Part shown: positions 27,709 to 62,211 of the stretch, one piece after another | How positions within the stretch are numbered: position 1 is the first letter of the stretch | How the letters are laid out: each line of letters starts with the position of its first letter | NCBI GenBank assembly: GCA_963757755.1 | Contig: CAVWTK010000003.1 | Location: forward strand, 295,825 to 359,824 | Source: an uncultured bacterium | GTDB lineage: Bacteria; Desulfobacterota; Binatia; HRBIN30; CADEER01 | Direction: 5' to 3' | Length of the DNA stretch: 64,000 nucleotides | Translations under genes and position numbers: made by a program | Notes under the pieces: generated by a model | What the model was told of the DNA's origin: nothing | What the model saw: the letters and a program-made list of their open reading frames with translations, nothing else | Databases searched by the model: none

Positions 27709-27724
27709 GACAAACACTCGTTTG
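27709..27724. promoter_or_regulatory. CAAAC-N4-GTTTG palindromic operator (PsrA/TetR-type), site a, overlapping a TTGACA -35-like hexamer
   Basis: ttGACAAACactcGTTTGg lies 47 nt upstream of the DUF35 start at 27771. TTGACA is at 27707-27712. Confidence 0.6.
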
Positions 27725-27770
27725 GCGCAGTAACTCCCCGCCCGCATCGACGCACGAGGAGGATCACAGC

Positions 27771-28232
27771 ATGAGCGCGCCAGGCACGGTTGAACCCATG
27801 TACAAGGACCAGGTCATGGAGTTCCCGTACAAGCACTCGACCGGCGAGACGGTGGGCCGTTTTCTCGCCGGGTTGAAGGAACAGAAGACGATCTGGGGGC
27901 AGCGGGTGAAGGGGCAGGGCGTGGTGGTGCCGCCGATGGGTTACTCGGAGCTCGACGCCGCGGGCGGCGGCGAGTGGGTGGCGGTGCAGGACACCGGCGT
28001 GATCACCGCCGCTGCGATCGTGCGCGAGCCGATCGAGCGGCTGCACCCGGTCGACGAGCCGTTCGCCTTCGTGCTGGTAAAGCTCGACGGGGCCGACACG
28101 GCGTTCGCGCACATCGCGCGCGGCGATCTGGGCACGCTGAAGGTCGGTGCGCGCGTGCAGGCGGAATGGGAGCCCGACGACGAGCGAGTGGGCAGCGTGC
28201 GCGACATCGCCGCGTTCCGCGTCGTCGGCTGA
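27771..28232 (+). CDS. DUF35 OB-fold (acyl-CoA-associated) protein 1
   Basis: An intact 153-aa ORF with GAGGAGG RBS. The OB-fold C-terminus reads FAFVLVKLDGADTAFAHIARGDLGTLKVGARVQAEW. Confidence 0.8.
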   Translation: MSAPGTVEPMYKDQVMEFPYKHSTGETVGRFLAGLKEQKTIWGQRVKGQGVVVPPMGYSELDAAGGGEWVAVQDTGVITAAAIVREPIERLHPVDEPFAFVLVKLDGADTAFAHIARGDLGTLKVGARVQAEWEPDDERVGSVRDIAAFRVVG

Positions 28233-28243
28233 GCGAGGACAGC

Positions 28244-28746
28244 ATGAAGGAACCGCCGAAGGATCCGGTCAAGTACGTCGAGACCGACGTCTATCTGCCG
28301 TACCGCTACATCGCCGGCGACTACCGGGCGCGCGCCATGCACGGGCTGAAGGACAAGAAGTTCATCGGCTCCAGGGACAGCAAGACCGGCAAGGTGTTCG
28401 TCACGCCGATCGTCAACTCGCCGGAGAGCTTCGCGCCCTGCGATACGAGTTCGTCGAGCTCGAGGGCAACGGCGTCGTCACCACCTTCTGCATCGTCAAC
28501 ATCCCGGTCATCGGCCGCGACCTGCAGCTGCCCTACGTCGCCGCCTCGGTGGCGCTCGACGGCGCCGACATCTCGATCTTCGCCGCCATCCAGGAATGCG
28601 CCGTCGGCGACGTGCGGATGGGCATGCGCGTCGAGGCGGTGTGGAAGCCGGACGGCGAACGCACCGGCTCGTTCGACGACGTGCTGTACTTCCGCCCCAC
28701 CGGCGAGCCCGACGCCGCGGCCGAGACCTACATCAACCGTCTGTGA
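28244..28746 (+). CDS. DUF35 OB-fold protein 2, one apparent frameshift
   Basis: MKEPPKDPVKYVE..FIGSRDSKTGKVFVTP is in the 27974 frame. YEFVELEGNGVVTTFCIVNIP..YVAASVALDGADISIFAAIQECAVGDVRMGMRVEAVW is in ORF 28147..28746. The junction is at about 28400-28440. Confidence 0.75.
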
Positions 28747-28754
28747 CCAGCATT

Positions 28755-28829
28755 TCTCACCACGGAGGCACGGAGGCACGGAGACAGTCTCACCGGAGTT
28801 CTCCGTGTCTCCGTGTCTCCGTGGTGAAA
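28755..28829. repeat. REP-like hairpin, family C (CACGGAGGCAC units)
   Basis: tctcaccacggaggcacggaggcacggagac..tctccgtgtctccgtgtctccgtggtgaaaa. Confidence 0.85.
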
Positions 28830-28841
28830 AGGATTTCGTGA

Positions 28842-59516: not shown

Positions 59517-60032
59517 TCAGTGCACCGCCATCCGCTGCCCGTGCGCCTTGGTCCACTCGCCGACCATGCGCGCGGCGTTCGCGGCGTCGTCCTCGGTGAG
59601 GGCGCGGGCCTGGTAGGTGAGCTCGAGCAGGACGCCGTTCGGGTCGGCGAAGTAGATCGAGTACCAGACGCCTTCGTGGTCGACGACCGGCGTGACCTGT
59701 ACATCGTGATCGAGCAGGCGCTGCCGCCAGGCGGTGAGCTCGTCCTGCGAGCCGACGCTCATCGCCAGGTGGCGCGACCAGGTCGGGGCGTTGTCCTTCT
59801 TGGGGCGCTCCATCCCCTCGATGTCGAAGAAGGCGATCACCTCGCCGCTCGCCATCGCGAAGAACGTGTGCAGATGCGGCTTCTCGGCGTTGGATTCGGG
59901 GTCGTACTCGCCGCGCACGGCGGCGACCAGCTTGAAGCCCATCACCTCGGTGTAGAAGCGATAGGTCGCCCCGGTGTCGTTCGTGAGATAGGCGACGTGG
60001 TTCAGCCGGTCGGCGATCTTCAGCTCGCTCAT
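59517..60032 (-). CDS. VOC (glyoxalase/extradiol dioxygenase fold) family protein
   Basis: An intact 171-aa ORF with LNHVAYLTNDTGATYRFYTEVMGFKL and PNGVLLEL. Confidence 0.7.
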   Translation of the reverse strand: MSELKIADRLNHVAYLTNDTGATYRFYTEVMGFKLVAAVRGEYDPESNAEKPHLHTFFAMASGEVIAFFDIEGMERPKKDNAPTWSRHLAMSVGSQDELTAWRQRLLDHDVQVTPVVDHEGVWYSIYFADPNGVLLELTYQARALTEDDAANAARMVGEWTKAHGQRMAVH

Positions 60033-60099
60033 CGAATCCTCTCCTTGCGGCGACGGATACTAGTGCCCCATCGGTCAGGCAACAACTCGCAACTTGCGC

Positions 60100-60845
60100 T
60101 CAGCCGAGCAGCTGGTCGGCGACCTCGCCGACGGTGCGGATCGTCAGCCGTTCGGCTCGCGCCGCGTCGATCACCGCCTCCAACGCCGCGATTCGCGCCG
60201 GCTCGATGCCGGTGATGGCCGCGTGGCAGACGGTGACGAAGAGGCCGTCCCGCGCTGCCGCCTTGTCGCAGCGCGGCCACCCAGGCATCGCGCACGGCAG
60301 CCGGATCGGCGGGCGTCGGCCGGAGGTAGTGGAAGCCATCGACGCCCGGCCACACGAACGGAATCTGCGCGAGCCCGGACTTCAGTCGGCGGGGCGTCAT
60401 GCCGTCGTCGCCGAGGCTGGCATCGTAGCGATAGTCAAGATCGCGCAGGATCTGCTCGGTCTGCGCCGTGCGCCGGCCGCCGGGGGCGCGGAAGCCGCGC
60501 GGCCGCACGCCGGACGCGCGCGGCCAGCGCCTCGGTGGCGCGCGTCGCCAGCGCGCGCTCCGACGCGACGTCGAGCGTCTCCCACGGCTCGTGCGTCCAG
60601 CCATGCATGCCGAGCTCGTGGCCGCGCACGACGATGGCGCGCACCGCCTCGGGATGGTGCACGCCGTTCCAGCCCTCGATGAAAAAGGTCGCGCGCACGC
60701 CGCGGCGCTCGAGCAACTCGAACAACGCCGGATAGCCGATCGCCAACGACGGGTCCTCGCCTTCGGGCAGCGGGCCGCTCAATCGCCCGGACCCGACGTC
60801 GGACGCCTCGCCCATGTTGTCGAACGTGAAGCAGGCGACTGTCAT
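60100..60845 (-). pseudogene. polysaccharide deacetylase (CE4/NodB-like) family protein, 2 frame changes
   Basis: MTVACFTFDNMGEA..ATFFIEGW..GHELGMHGWTHE is in ORF 60435..60845. GFRAPGG..DYRYDASL is in the 60029..60604 frame. The C-terminus is in ORF 60100..60339. Confidence 0.7.
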
Positions 60846-60855
60846 CGCATTCAGA

Positions 60856-60941
60856 AGACTTTCACCGCAGAGACGCGAAGACGCAGAGAGGGCGCACTGG
60901 CAGCCGATCTCCGCGTCTCCGCGCCTCTGCGGTGAAAGTCT
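60856..60941. repeat. REP-like hairpin (GCAGAGAC/GCGAAGAC units)
   Basis: agactttcaccgcagagacgcgaagacgcagagag..tctccgcgtctccgcgcctctgcggtgaaagtct. Confidence 0.85.
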
Positions 60942-62080
60942 TTATTCACCGATCACTCCGTCGGCGCGCAGCCGTTCGATGCCGGCGGCGTCGAAGCCGA
61001 GCTCCTGCAGCACCGATTCCGTGTGTTCGCCGAAGAGGGGCGGCGGTGTGCGCAGTGACGGCGGCGTGTCGGAGAGGTGGACGGGATTGCCGAGCGTCGG
61101 CTGTCCGTTCGGTTGATCGAGGACCATGCCGCGGTGGCGGAGCTGCGGATCGGCGAGCATCTGCTCGACGTCGTTGACCGGGCCGAAGCAGATGTCGCGC
61201 TCGCCGAGCTCGGCCATCCATTCGGCCTGGTCTGCGGGTGCGGAAGATGGCGCGGAACGTCTCGAGGATGTGCTGACGCTCGTCGCCCTCGTCCCATTGG
61301 CGCTCGATGAATCTCGGGATGGCCGAGGTGTTGCAGAGCGTCGCCCAGAAGTGGCGCCTCGTAGGCGCCGACCGTGACGTAGCGCTGCGTCCTTCGTCTC
61401 GTACACGGCGTAGCAGGCGTGGTGCCCCGTCAGCTGGGTGCGCGCCGCGCTGCGGCGTCTGGCCGAGCTGATGGAGGAGCACGTGGTAGACGTTCCAGAG
61501 CGCCGCGCCGTCGGTCATGGCGATGTCGACCATCTGTCCGCGGCCGGTCTGCTGGCGCGCGATGACGCGCTGAGAGGATGCCGATCGCCGCCATCAGCGC
61601 GCCGGCGCCGATGTCGGCGATCTGTACGCCGGGGATGACCGGCGGCGCCGTCGCCGTGGCCGATGAAGTCCAGCACGCCGGCGAAGCCGAGGTAGTTGAC
61701 GTCGTGGCCGACGCGATCGCGGTACGGACCGTCCTGTCCGTAGCCCGAGATCGCGCAGTAGATCAGGCGCGGGTTGCGCGCCGCGAGGGTCGCGTAGTCG
61801 AGCCCGAGGCGCTTCGTCACGCCGGGGCGGAAGCCCTCGAGCAAGACGTCGGCCTCGTCGACCAGGCGAAGGAAGACGTCGCGTCCCGCCGGCGTCTTCA
61901 GGTTCAGCGTCATGCTGCGCTTGTTGCGCGCCAGGAACGGAATGCCGGAGCCGAACGGGTCGGTGGGGTTGGACGACCATCAGCGTGTCCATGCCCGAGG
62001 TCGGCGAGCAGCGTCGAGCAGAAGGGCCCCGGCAGCTGGCGGGACAGATCGAGCAGCTTGAGATCCTGCAGCGGCGTCAT
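60942..62080 (-). pseudogene. family-III CoA-transferase (CaiB/BaiF; alpha-methylacyl-CoA racemase-like), at least 4 frame changes
   Basis: MTPLQDLKLLDLSRQLPGPFCSTLLADLG is in ORF 61910..62116. VLLEGFRPGVTKRLGLDY..IYCAISGYGQDGPY is in ORF 61515..61913. The C-terminus (FGPVNDVEQMLADPQLRHRGMV..FGEHTESVLQELG) is in ORF 60942..61406. Confidence 0.75.
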
Positions 62081-62193
62081 GGCGGGTGCAGAACCACGCC
62101 GCGCCGGCGGATTCAACGCTTGGCTGGCGTGCGGCGCGTCAGCGCCGCACCCGCGGCTGCCGCGATCCAGTGAGCGAGGGCGCGCCGCGCCGC

Positions 62194-62211
62194 CACAAAC
62201 GATCGTTTGTC
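62194..62211. promoter_or_regulatory. CAAAC-N4-GTTTG operator, site d, in a divergent promoter region
   Basis: CACAAACgatcGTTTGTC lies 31 nt upstream of the SDR ATG at 62242 and 114 nt from the divergent CoA-transferase start. Confidence 0.6.

Follow-up and report, generated by a model that had tools for sequence, protein, structure and literature searches.

A putative TetR-family regulon marked by a PsrA-type palindromic operator in an uncultured Binatia bacterium

We propose that four copies of the inverted repeat CAAAC-N4-GTTTG in a 64-kb stretch of DNA from an uncultured Binatia bacterium (the whole analysed stretch, called the window here) are operators of one TetR-family repressor, P0001, encoded at 33846-34505. 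We consider this reading highly probable; binding, repression and the effector are inferred. The locus appears to hold a real and well-conserved regulon, but one run by a familiar kind of gene switch with predicted binding.

Operator sites and their conservation

The exact motif occurs four times in the window against 0.02 expected (mean of shuffles, 0.02; four or more sites in 0/100), and tolerating one mismatch in the window search added no site to these four. The 7.21-Mb source genome (G000) contains ten exact N4 sites, four of them within the window, and a genome-wide search for CAAAC/GTTTG pairs spaced by N2, N3, N5 or N6 returned no exact match. None of the ten sites lies inside a gene call, though the calls span 80% of the genome, and all sites are found 16-116 bp upstream of a start codon. 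The first spacer base is a purine in 40/40 half-sites, which indicates that the constraint reaches past the 10 fixed bases, and the extended inverted-repeat consensus reads G(A/C)CAAAC-R-N2-Y-GTTTG(T/G)C. Beyond the motif itself, the flanks of the four window sites have nothing in common. The first-pass annotation had located these sites, as extended strings at 27707-27725, 33809-33831, 53530-53547 and 62194-62211, had described all four as intergenic and upstream of start codons with two overlapping a perfect TTGACA, and had put the chance expectation far below one; the present counts and positions agree with it on every point. Two of the checks it suggested, a one-mismatch search with a coding/intergenic comparison and phylogenetic footprinting (below), likewise came out in its favour.

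Table 1 Operators and genes of the proposed regulon in the window
Feature	Coordinates	Strand	Evidence or remark
Operator a	27711..27724		CAAACactcGTTTG; exact motif match
DUF35 / ChsH2-type OB-fold protein 1, first operon gene	27771..28232	+	Pfam PF01796 7.8e-10
DUF35 protein 2, 2 frames	28244..28746	+	Pfam PF01796 2.1e-13; tblastn with G001 protein
SCP2-type thiolase-fold protein A	28842..29968	+	tblastn with intact 374-aa G001 orthologue
SCP2-type thiolase-fold protein B, 3 frames; start approximate	29968..31121	+	Pfam Thiolase_C_1 7e-28; tblastn, G001 383 aa
Enoyl-CoA hydratase (crotonase), last operon gene	31219..32013	+	Pfam ECH_1 1e-58
Operator b	33813..33826		CAAACaaacGTTTG; exact motif match
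TetR-family regulator P0001, 219 aa	33846..34505	+	Pfam TetR_N (PF00440) 2e-14, residues 20-67
CYP125/CYP124-like cytochrome P450	34522..35745	+	Pfam p450
Putative cyclase-family hydrolase	51063..51986	-	Pfam Cyclase 1.2e-21; 158 bp downstream of DUF1329
DUF1329 / LolA-like exported protein	52145..53467	-	Pfam DUF1329 2.5e-34
Operator c	53532..53545		minus-strand reading GACAAACgattGTTTGAC; exact motif match
Family III CoA-transferase, at least 3 frames	60946..62080	-	Pfam CoA_transf_3 on two separate fragments
Operator d	62196..62209		aCAAACgatcGTTTGt; 16-bp perfect palindrome, divergent intergenic region
Short-chain dehydrogenase/reductase (SDR), 3 frames	62242..63010	+	Pfam adh_short
Acyl-CoA synthetase (AMP-binding); start approximate, runs off window	63078..64000	+	Pfam AMP-binding 2.2e-29

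The left arm of operator a overlaps TTGACA at 27707-27712, with TAACTC 18 nt downstream of that hexamer; the operator itself ends 47 bp short of the ATG at 27771. Operator b is flanked by an overlapping TTGACA (33809-33814) and by TACTGC (33833-33838), and the ATG of the TetR gene lies downstream of it, with no Shine-Dalgarno sequence. Read on the minus strand, the right arm of operator c overlaps TTGACT of TTGACT-N18-TACGAG, 65 bp from the DUF1329 ATG at 53467, and operator d is 33 bp from the SDR ATG and 116 bp from that of the CoA-transferase. A scan for the sigma-70 consensus did not return a full promoter at any of these sites, so the -35/-10 assignment rests on TTGACA and a conserved TA-rich hexamer, in a group (Binatia) whose promoters are uncharacterised.

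Each of the ten sites of the source genome is matched by an exact site at the orthologous promoter in a congener, G001 (80-90% DNA identity). In the window, the half-sites of all four operators and the promoter block beside them are kept, while the N4 spacer and the flanks diverge. Operators a and c are conserved blocks in the alignment, the spacer of a reading ACTC here and GTTC in G001; the promoter layout of b recurs; and at d the half-sites are retained with 4/4 spacer bases changed. In two further loci (L003 and L004) a site equivalent to operator a precedes DUF35 and the TetR gene forms the end of the same operon, and L010 has a one-mismatch version. In another relative, G009, one site lies between the divergent TetR gene and DUF35-thiolase operon, and others precede ACAD and CoA-transferase genes.

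The conservation extends to the regulator itself. An exact site 30-70 bp upstream of the P0001 orthologue is present in at least 14 loci of other Binatia-type genomes (L002, L006, L009-L016, L059, L065, L066 and L068), in the fixed order TTGACA-operator-TAnnnn-ATG, and the motif was found in none of 39 unrelated TetR loci scanned (~400 kb). Across 40 relatives, the number of motif copies is correlated with the occurrence of the TetR orthologue: the 30 that carry an orthologue have a mean of 6.7 sites versus 1.9 for a reversed control pattern, and those without one have 0-2, two very fragmented assemblies excepted (for example, 0-1 sites each in G008, G012, G035, G037 and G039). One relative, G003, has 8 sites and no detected orthologue in an assembly of 1210 contigs at 91% completeness. 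Promoter conservation, the G001 footprints and this phyletic pattern together support in silico the earlier suggestion that the TetR regulator at 33846 is autoregulated and co-regulates operons 6, 20 and 28 kb away.

The regulator, its candidate targets and a proposed mechanism

The AF2 model of P0001 is an all-helical two-domain TetR-type structure of 10 helices (pLDDT 79, pTM 0.73). Foldseek returned 273 matches at E<=0.001, the best 50 of which are all TetR-family structures, and the recognition helix, GLKNQASLYHHF, is almost invariant among orthologues. Among alignments of at least 150 residues, a search of the source genome gave no paralogue more than 32% identical, and no regulator other than P0001 was seen among the genes flanking the ten genomic sites.

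The gene identities given by the first-pass annotation (DUF35, TetR-P450, DUF1329 and CoA-transferase/SDR) were confirmed by Pfam, but its composition of the first operon was incomplete, since this operon contains two DUF35 and two thiolase-fold genes, and several genes are split over 2-4 frames in this assembly. The order DUF35-DUF35-thioA-thioB-ECH is also found in other Binatia loci, and the ECH gene is absent from the corresponding place in G001. The first DUF35 protein is 83% identical to its intact G001 orthologue. Thiolase-fold protein A is matched in 3 reading frames and 4 separate pieces in this assembly, with SCP2-thiolase, BbsB and Ltp2-type chains as PDB matches; those of protein B are 4yzo, 6hsj, 7pxp and 6ok1. 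The P450 has as its best PDB match the CYP125 ancestral reconstruction 8vxi (1.5e-160), followed by CYP124, CYP125 and CYP142. A gap of 16 nt separates it from the TetR gene, with which it is predicted to be co-transcribed, and 15 related loci (12 of L001-L018 and 3 of L059-L069) likewise have a P450 after the TetR gene.

The DUF1329 protein shares 85% identity with its G001 orthologue and probably forms one transcription unit with the cyclase-family hydrolase. A second TetR gene is located at 50327-50941, 2.6 kb from site c. The N-terminus of the CoA-transferase, MTPLQDLKLLDLSRQLPGPFC, begins at 62080 by direct reading of the sequence, and its 375-aa orthologue is intact in G001, as is the 257-aa orthologue of the SDR, whose adh_short match covers profile positions 2-48 in one frame and 125-189 in another. 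The 502-aa G001 orthologue of the acyl-CoA synthetase lies directly 3' of the SDR gene. The window showed no genes for steroid ring degradation. Outside it, six more units bear a site. Two encode acyl-CoA dehydrogenases and one a second P450; the others are a PaaK-like ligase gene divergent from an amidase gene, an amidohydrolase gene and an FKBP-DUF35-thiolase unit. The genes 16-116 bp downstream of sites include ACAD, thiolase-fold, hydratase, CoA-transferase and acyl-CoA synthetase genes, and their position suggests that these beta-oxidation genes are under the control of the operator.

In the mechanism we propose, a TetR dimer would bind the extended inverted repeat. At sites a and b the repeat would occupy the spacer between the TTGACA -35 and the TA-rich -10 box, and at c and d its right arm would overlap a -35-like hexamer, so that bound repressor would exclude RNA polymerase from the promoter. 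P0001 would thereby repress its own two-gene operon with the CYP125-like P450, the DUF35-DUF35-thiolase-thiolase-crotonase operon, the DUF1329(-cyclase) unit and the divergent pair of CoA-transferase and SDR-acyl-CoA-synthetase. Release might follow from a lipid-derived ligand, either the free acid or the CoA thioester of the pathway substrate; that the effector is a fatty acyl or acyl-CoA we can only infer.

Alternative readings and significance

The operators could instead be bound by another regulator (another of the ~20 genomic TetRs, the TetR at 50327-50941 or a non-TetR factor), with P0001 a mere target. The relative with 8 sites and no detected orthologue fits such a regulator, as do the closeness of the second TetR gene to site c and the scores on the PsrA model (NF053516), on which P0001 is only the fifth best in the source genome. 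Because four other TetR loci score higher, HTH similarity alone does not single out P0001. However, neither these four nor the second TetR adjoins a site, the own-promoter site is confined to P0001 orthologues across many genera, and site abundance follows the presence of the orthologue. We therefore regard another binder as unlikely.

About equally improbable, in our view, is activation or dual control of some promoters by site-bound P0001. PsrA can activate as well as repress, for instance at rpoS and exsC, which makes the direction of control at sites c and d less certain; at these two sites the operator coincides with or precedes the putative -35 and does not fall between -35 and -10. At a, b and all TetR-orthologue promoters, in contrast, the operator takes up the -35/-10 spacer, a classic geometry of repression, and TetR-family regulators of catabolic clusters are mostly repressors.

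True PsrA orthology of P0001, which would make it a sensor of long-chain fatty acids like those of Pseudomonas, Vibrio or Shewanella that Binatia either inherited or acquired, is very improbable. The points in its favour are that the operator coincides with the PsrA consensus (PMC13104628), that beta-oxidation-type enzymes are among the targets, that the best NCBIfam match of P0001 is the Vibrio PsrA model, and that the PsrA structure 2fbq is its third-best PDB sequence match. The model match, however, reaches 50.5 bits against a cut-off of 300 and covers residues 15-78 only, that is, the HTH. This region can be aligned to 2fbq, with no sequence similarity past residue 76 and thus none in the ligand domain, and 2fbq is not among the best 50 Foldseek matches. 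The HTH-only score and the dissimilar ligand domain speak strongly against P0001 being a PsrA orthologue, and four other TetR loci of the source genome fit the PsrA model better. Finally, the view that the repeats arose by chance or are copies of a repeated element with no regulatory role (REP or MITE), for which one might cite ~206 bp near site a that are missing from G001, is effectively refuted by the window count, the unrelated flanks, the intergenic placement just 5' of start codons and the persistence of the sites at orthologous G001 promoters while their flanks diverge.

Taken together, the proposed control of these operators by P0001 as a repressor provides an uncultured phylum, Binatia/Binatota, with a testable regulon map; to our knowledge, the phylum has so far been described only through metagenome-based metabolic inventories. 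PMC8262859 notes that its members degrade alkanes and fatty acids and says nothing of how this is regulated. The ten operators join genes that annotation alone would leave unlinked, namely P450s, DUF35/thiolase, DUF1329, CoA-transferase, amidohydrolases and FKBP, and thus delimit a candidate pathway for the catabolism of bulky or branched lipids. More tentatively, the TetR and its operator may act as master switch for a compact pathway, widespread in Binatia, in which a CYP125/124-type terminal hydroxylase, DUF35/SCP2-thiolase cleavage modules, ACADs and CoA-transferases strip side chains from sterols, hopanoids or other methyl-branched isoprenoids. The system would then parallel the actinobacterial KstR regulon in function, with a PsrA-like operator and an unrelated TetR lineage. 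This is possible rather than probable; if true, the regulon list would directly supply the components of an as yet uncharacterised route of lipid degradation from an uncultured phylum. The ligand of P0001 would disclose the pathway substrate. That a PsrA-type operator can apparently be used by a non-orthologous TetR, its presumed binder, also calls for caution in motif-based transfer of regulons between phyla.

Comparison with known systems

Among the best structural neighbours of the P0001 model are FadR (YsiA) of Bacillus and FasR/BkaR of Mycobacterium (TM 0.6-0.68), acyl-CoA-responsive repressors or activators of fatty-acid or branched-chain metabolism. Their 18-23% identity to P0001 reflects generic TetR-fold similarity, and their operators differ.

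PsrA (PA3006) of Pseudomonas and its relatives Smlt2053 and Xac2014 are likewise TetR-family regulators whose own promoters carry a site for autoregulation, and PsrA controls acyl-CoA dehydrogenase, thiolase and hydratase-type genes, resembling the Binatia target list. The PsrA operator consensus is C/GAAAC-N2-4-GTTTG/C, and the P. putida rpoS site reads TTCAAAC-N4-GTTTGAA (PMC13104628, PMC10304680); the Binatia operator fits this published consensus, bearing out its first-pass assignment to the PsrA type, but its spacer is strictly N4 instead of N2-4. Only the HTH of P0001 aligns with PsrA, the ligand domain being unrelated by sequence and by fold ranking. The Binatia regulon, in which no link to rpoS, quorum sensing or T3SS was seen, centres on CYP125-like P450 and DUF35/SCP2-thiolase modules, whereas that of PsrA centres on fadBA. 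The host, an uncultured Binatia bacterium, is also unlike those of PsrA.

KstR and KstR2 of actinobacterial cholesterol catabolism differ in their operators, TnnAACnnGTTnnA and AnCAAGnnCTTGnT, respectively. P0001 scores 16.2 bits against a cut-off of 280 on the KstR model (NF033703) and matches KstR2 structures over the HTH only, at ~1e-6. In architecture, however, these systems are close to the regulon proposed here: there too, an autoregulated TetR repressor has numerous palindromic operators across a large catabolic supercluster, which likewise contains cyp125-type P450s, DUF35/Ltp2-type thiolase-fold proteins, ACADs, hydratases and CoA ligases.

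A rare palindrome of fixed spacing and the genes behind it

The first-pass annotation had reported four copies of CAAAC-N4-GTTTG in the window. An exact search indeed returned four (sites a to d in the table), compared with a mean of 0.02 by chance and with none of 100 dinucleotide-preserving shuffles reaching four; the extended strings and coordinates given in that annotation are correct against the sequence, and allowing one mismatch in the window yielded the same four sites and no others. Across the genome (7.21 Mb, 70% G+C, nine contigs; the window is C3:295825-359824) the exact motif occurs ten times, and none of the ten copies lies inside a called gene, with calls spanning 80% of the genome. 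A genome scan with the same arms and a spacer of 2, 3, 5 or 6 gave no exact match. These counts show a motif that is rare, spacing-specific and confined to non-coding DNA, with four of its ten copies in the window. When two mismatches were allowed on CAAACR-N2-YGTTTG, four weak window sites and one offset overlap of site c were found, against ~2.8 expected by chance. A two-mismatch motif, CAAACGGTTGATTT at 16597-16610, sits between two closely spaced minus-strand genes for exported enzymes and is at chance level.

Pooled, the 20 sites found here and in the congeneric genome G001 gave the symmetrised half-site t-n-G-(C/A)-CAAAC-R, and all 40 half-sites have a purine as the first spacer base. 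This puts the constrained operator at ~16-18 bp, G(A/C)CAAAC-R-N2-Y-GTTTG(T/G)C. A longer palindrome at site b, TTGAC...GTCAA, was rejected: its register is half a base off, and the right-hand GTCAA is not kept in G001 or in other orthologues.

The gene map was based on Pfam matches and intact G001 orthologues, because the high G+C content creates many shadow ORFs and the assembly contains many frameshifts. A minus-strand ORF at 33888-34523, for example, was dismissed as an antisense shadow, since Pfam identifies the plus-strand TetR gene as the real one. Many genes are broken across 2-4 frames (28244-31121, 43305-44368, 49088-50202, 53674-54606, 60109-63010 and others), most densely at 18-31 kb and 54-64 kb. 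They could be read as true pseudogenes; their G001 orthologues are intact and the genome, with 7.2 Mb in nine contigs, reaches only 68% completeness, which makes an assembly rich in indels, and possibly built from long reads, the more likely cause.

Operators and associated genes
Feature	Position	Strand	Context
Site a	27711		47 bp before first DUF35 gene
First DUF35 gene	27771-28232		Operon a: DUF35, second DUF35, two SCP2-type thiolase-fold genes, crotonase
Crotonase	31219-32013		Last in operon a order
Site b	33813		20 bp before TetR gene
TetR	33846-34505	+	P450 gene after a 16-nt gap
HxlR-type winged-helix regulator	35860-36396	-	Converges on P450; read from ORF sequence
Site c	53532		65 bp before DUF1329; right arm overlaps -35-like hexamer, TTGACT-N18-TACGAG (read from sequence and G001 alignment)
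DUF1329 gene	52145-53467	-	Followed by cyclase-family gene
Site d	62196		Between CoA-transferase and SDR genes; right arm overlaps -35-like hexamer, TTGTCT-N17-TATGGA (read from sequence and G001 alignment)
Family III CoA-transferase	ATG 62080	-	
SDR	ATG 62242		Followed by acyl-CoA synthetase
Six sites outside the window			Precede two acyl-CoA dehydrogenases; a second P450; an amidohydrolase; a PaaK-like ligase divergent from an amidase; an FKBP-DUF35-thiolase unit

The TetR-P450 unit comprises two genes, as the HxlR-type gene converges on the P450. The best solved relatives of this P450 are a CYP125 ancestral reconstruction (1.5e-160), CYP124, CYP125 and CYP142; no ferredoxin gene follows it. 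A second TetR gene (50327-50941, plus strand; TetR_N and TetR_C_24/29) is divergent from its neighbour and lacks CAAAC-N4-GTTTG, and is probably a separate local circuit.

Conservation of the operator and its pairing with the TetR

The window is collinear, in reverse orientation, with 75.9-149 kb of contig C7 in G001, which also carries ten exact sites, each at the orthologous place of one site in the genome studied here. Alignment of the four control regions between the two genomes revealed identity islands made up of the half-sites and the adjoining promoter block, in intergenic DNA that is otherwise barely alignable, and the 4-nt spacer has drifted (ACTC to GTTC, AATC to AACC, GATC to AGGT). 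Half-sites kept at all four promoters around a drifting spacer are what a palindrome bound by a protein should show, and binding is predicted on this footprint.

At 27473-27701, ~206 bp have no counterpart in G001, where only 22 bp separate the peroxiredoxin gene from the operon a promoter; this insertion stops ~20 bp upstream of the site a -35 box, without disrupting the operator. Two larger segments, 20884-26993 (6.1 kb) and 31135-33808 (2.7 kb), have no syntenic G001 counterpart, and the latter holds the crotonase and a GMC oxidoreductase gene (32125-33651, minus strand). The crotonase was probably lost in G001, given that in other Binatia loci a crotonase usually follows thiolase B, while the GMC oxidoreductase gene looks like an insertion. 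In G001 an acyl-CoA dehydrogenase gene is preceded by a fifth site, 6.5 kb beyond the position that corresponds to the end of the window, and the counterpart of this site here is at C1:1476381, 8 kb short of where contig C1 ends. These positions suggest that C1 and C3, the contig of the window, probably adjoin at their ends and that the supercluster carries five of the ten operators.

Among related loci, an exact site is found just upstream of the TetR orthologue in L002, L006, L009-L016, L059, L065, L066 and L068, and a degenerate one at the same place in L001 and L004; the motif was absent from 39 unrelated TetR loci of the same scan (~400 kb). Among 40 relatives, the 30 genomes with a TetR orthologue (E <= 1e-60) average 6.7 sites, compared with 1.9 for a reversed control pattern, while genomes without one (two of genus g8, G035, G037 and G039) have 0-1 sites. 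The exceptions to this pairing are G003 and G036, whose assemblies run to 710-1210 contigs; orthologue fragments are present in G036. The recognition-helix segment GLKNQASLYHHF is near-invariant among orthologues that are otherwise 42-74% identical, and the genome studied here encodes no close paralogue, the best sharing 32% identity over at least 150 residues. Taken together, the conserved own-promoter site and the pairing of orthologue with site number support the earlier proposal of one TetR regulon, autoregulated through site b.

The closest loci encoding this TetR come from MAGs labelled Candidatus Binatia/Binatus, "Deltaproteobacteria" and, in some cases, Chloroflexota/Dehalococcoidia, which places the window in the uncultured Binatia (Binatota) group. 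Bins with the last label (L008, L011, L012, L015 and L016) carry the TetR-P450 pair with the same operator, at 54-61% identity to the Binatia protein, which points to horizontal transfer or mis-binning.

Beyond the genus, G009 (TetR 55-57% identical) has one site between the divergent TetR and a DUF35-thiolase-thiolase operon, and its other sites precede an acyl-CoA dehydrogenase (ACAD), a CoA-transferase subunit and a pair of ACAD and CoA-transferase genes. The site of L003 and L004 stands before DUF35, in an operon that ends with the TetR, and in L006 a lone site precedes a single string, TetR-P450-DUF35-DUF35-thiolase-thiolase-crotonase. Judged by these gene orders, the core of the predicted regulon is the TetR, the CYP125-like P450 and DUF35/thiolase/crotonase, and its predicted periphery is ACADs, CoA-transferases and ligases.

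Promoter geometry and predicted repression

The promoters of the TetR orthologues share a fixed layout, in which the operator starts at the fifth base of TTGACA, TAnnnn follows 17-18 nt past TTGACA, and the ATG lies 5-7 nt further on without a Shine-Dalgarno sequence. The window copy spans 33809-33848, and the layout is conserved across genera in loci with an exact site. Because TTGACA is kept on the upstream side only, it belongs to the promoter and not to the palindrome. The TetR transcript probably lacks a leader, with its start predicted at the A of ATG 33846, and the SDR gene at 62242 has a matching geometry (TATGGA-N7-ATG). None of the four control regions showed a full consensus promoter in a simple sigma-70 scan, and conservation is therefore the basis of the promoter assignment.

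Classic TetR repression through occlusion of the promoter, including autoregulation, is the reading with most support. The operator lies in the putative -35/-10 spacer at sites a and b, and with its right arm it overlaps the -35-like hexamer at c and d. The target set suggests as effector a lipid acid that is bulky or branched, or the CoA ester of such an acid. A fold search assigned no effector and returned only generic TetR neighbours, among them the acyl-CoA-binding FadR, FasR and BkaR, a weak hint that the effector may be an acyl-CoA.

Relation to PsrA and KstR

The Binatia operator equals the published PsrA consensus, C/GAAAC-N2-4-GTTTG/C, as exemplified by the P. putida rpoS site TTCAAAC-N4-GTTTGAA (PMC13104628, PMC10304680). 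Orthology of the TetR to PsrA was rejected: with 50.5 bits it falls short of the 300-bit cut-off, its match is confined to the HTH, and it ranks fifth among the matches to the PsrA model in its own genome; its ligand domain has no similarity to 2fbq, which falls outside the top 50 fold matches. The TetR is predicted to work like PsrA, yet it is not a PsrA. In function, the regulon looks closer to that of actinobacterial KstR, with a cyp125-type P450, DUF35/Ltp2-type proteins and ACADs; membership of the KstR family was also rejected, as the KstR model gives only 16 bits. A genome-based account of the Binatota portrays them as rich in genes for the degradation of alkanes and fatty acids and does not report on regulation (PMC8262859). 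The evidence supports a predicted system of a kind already known, in which an autoregulated TetR repressor would govern a supercluster for lipid catabolism through dispersed palindromic operators. Here the host belongs to an uncultured phylum, and the value of the finding lies in delimiting a pathway rather than in a new principle.
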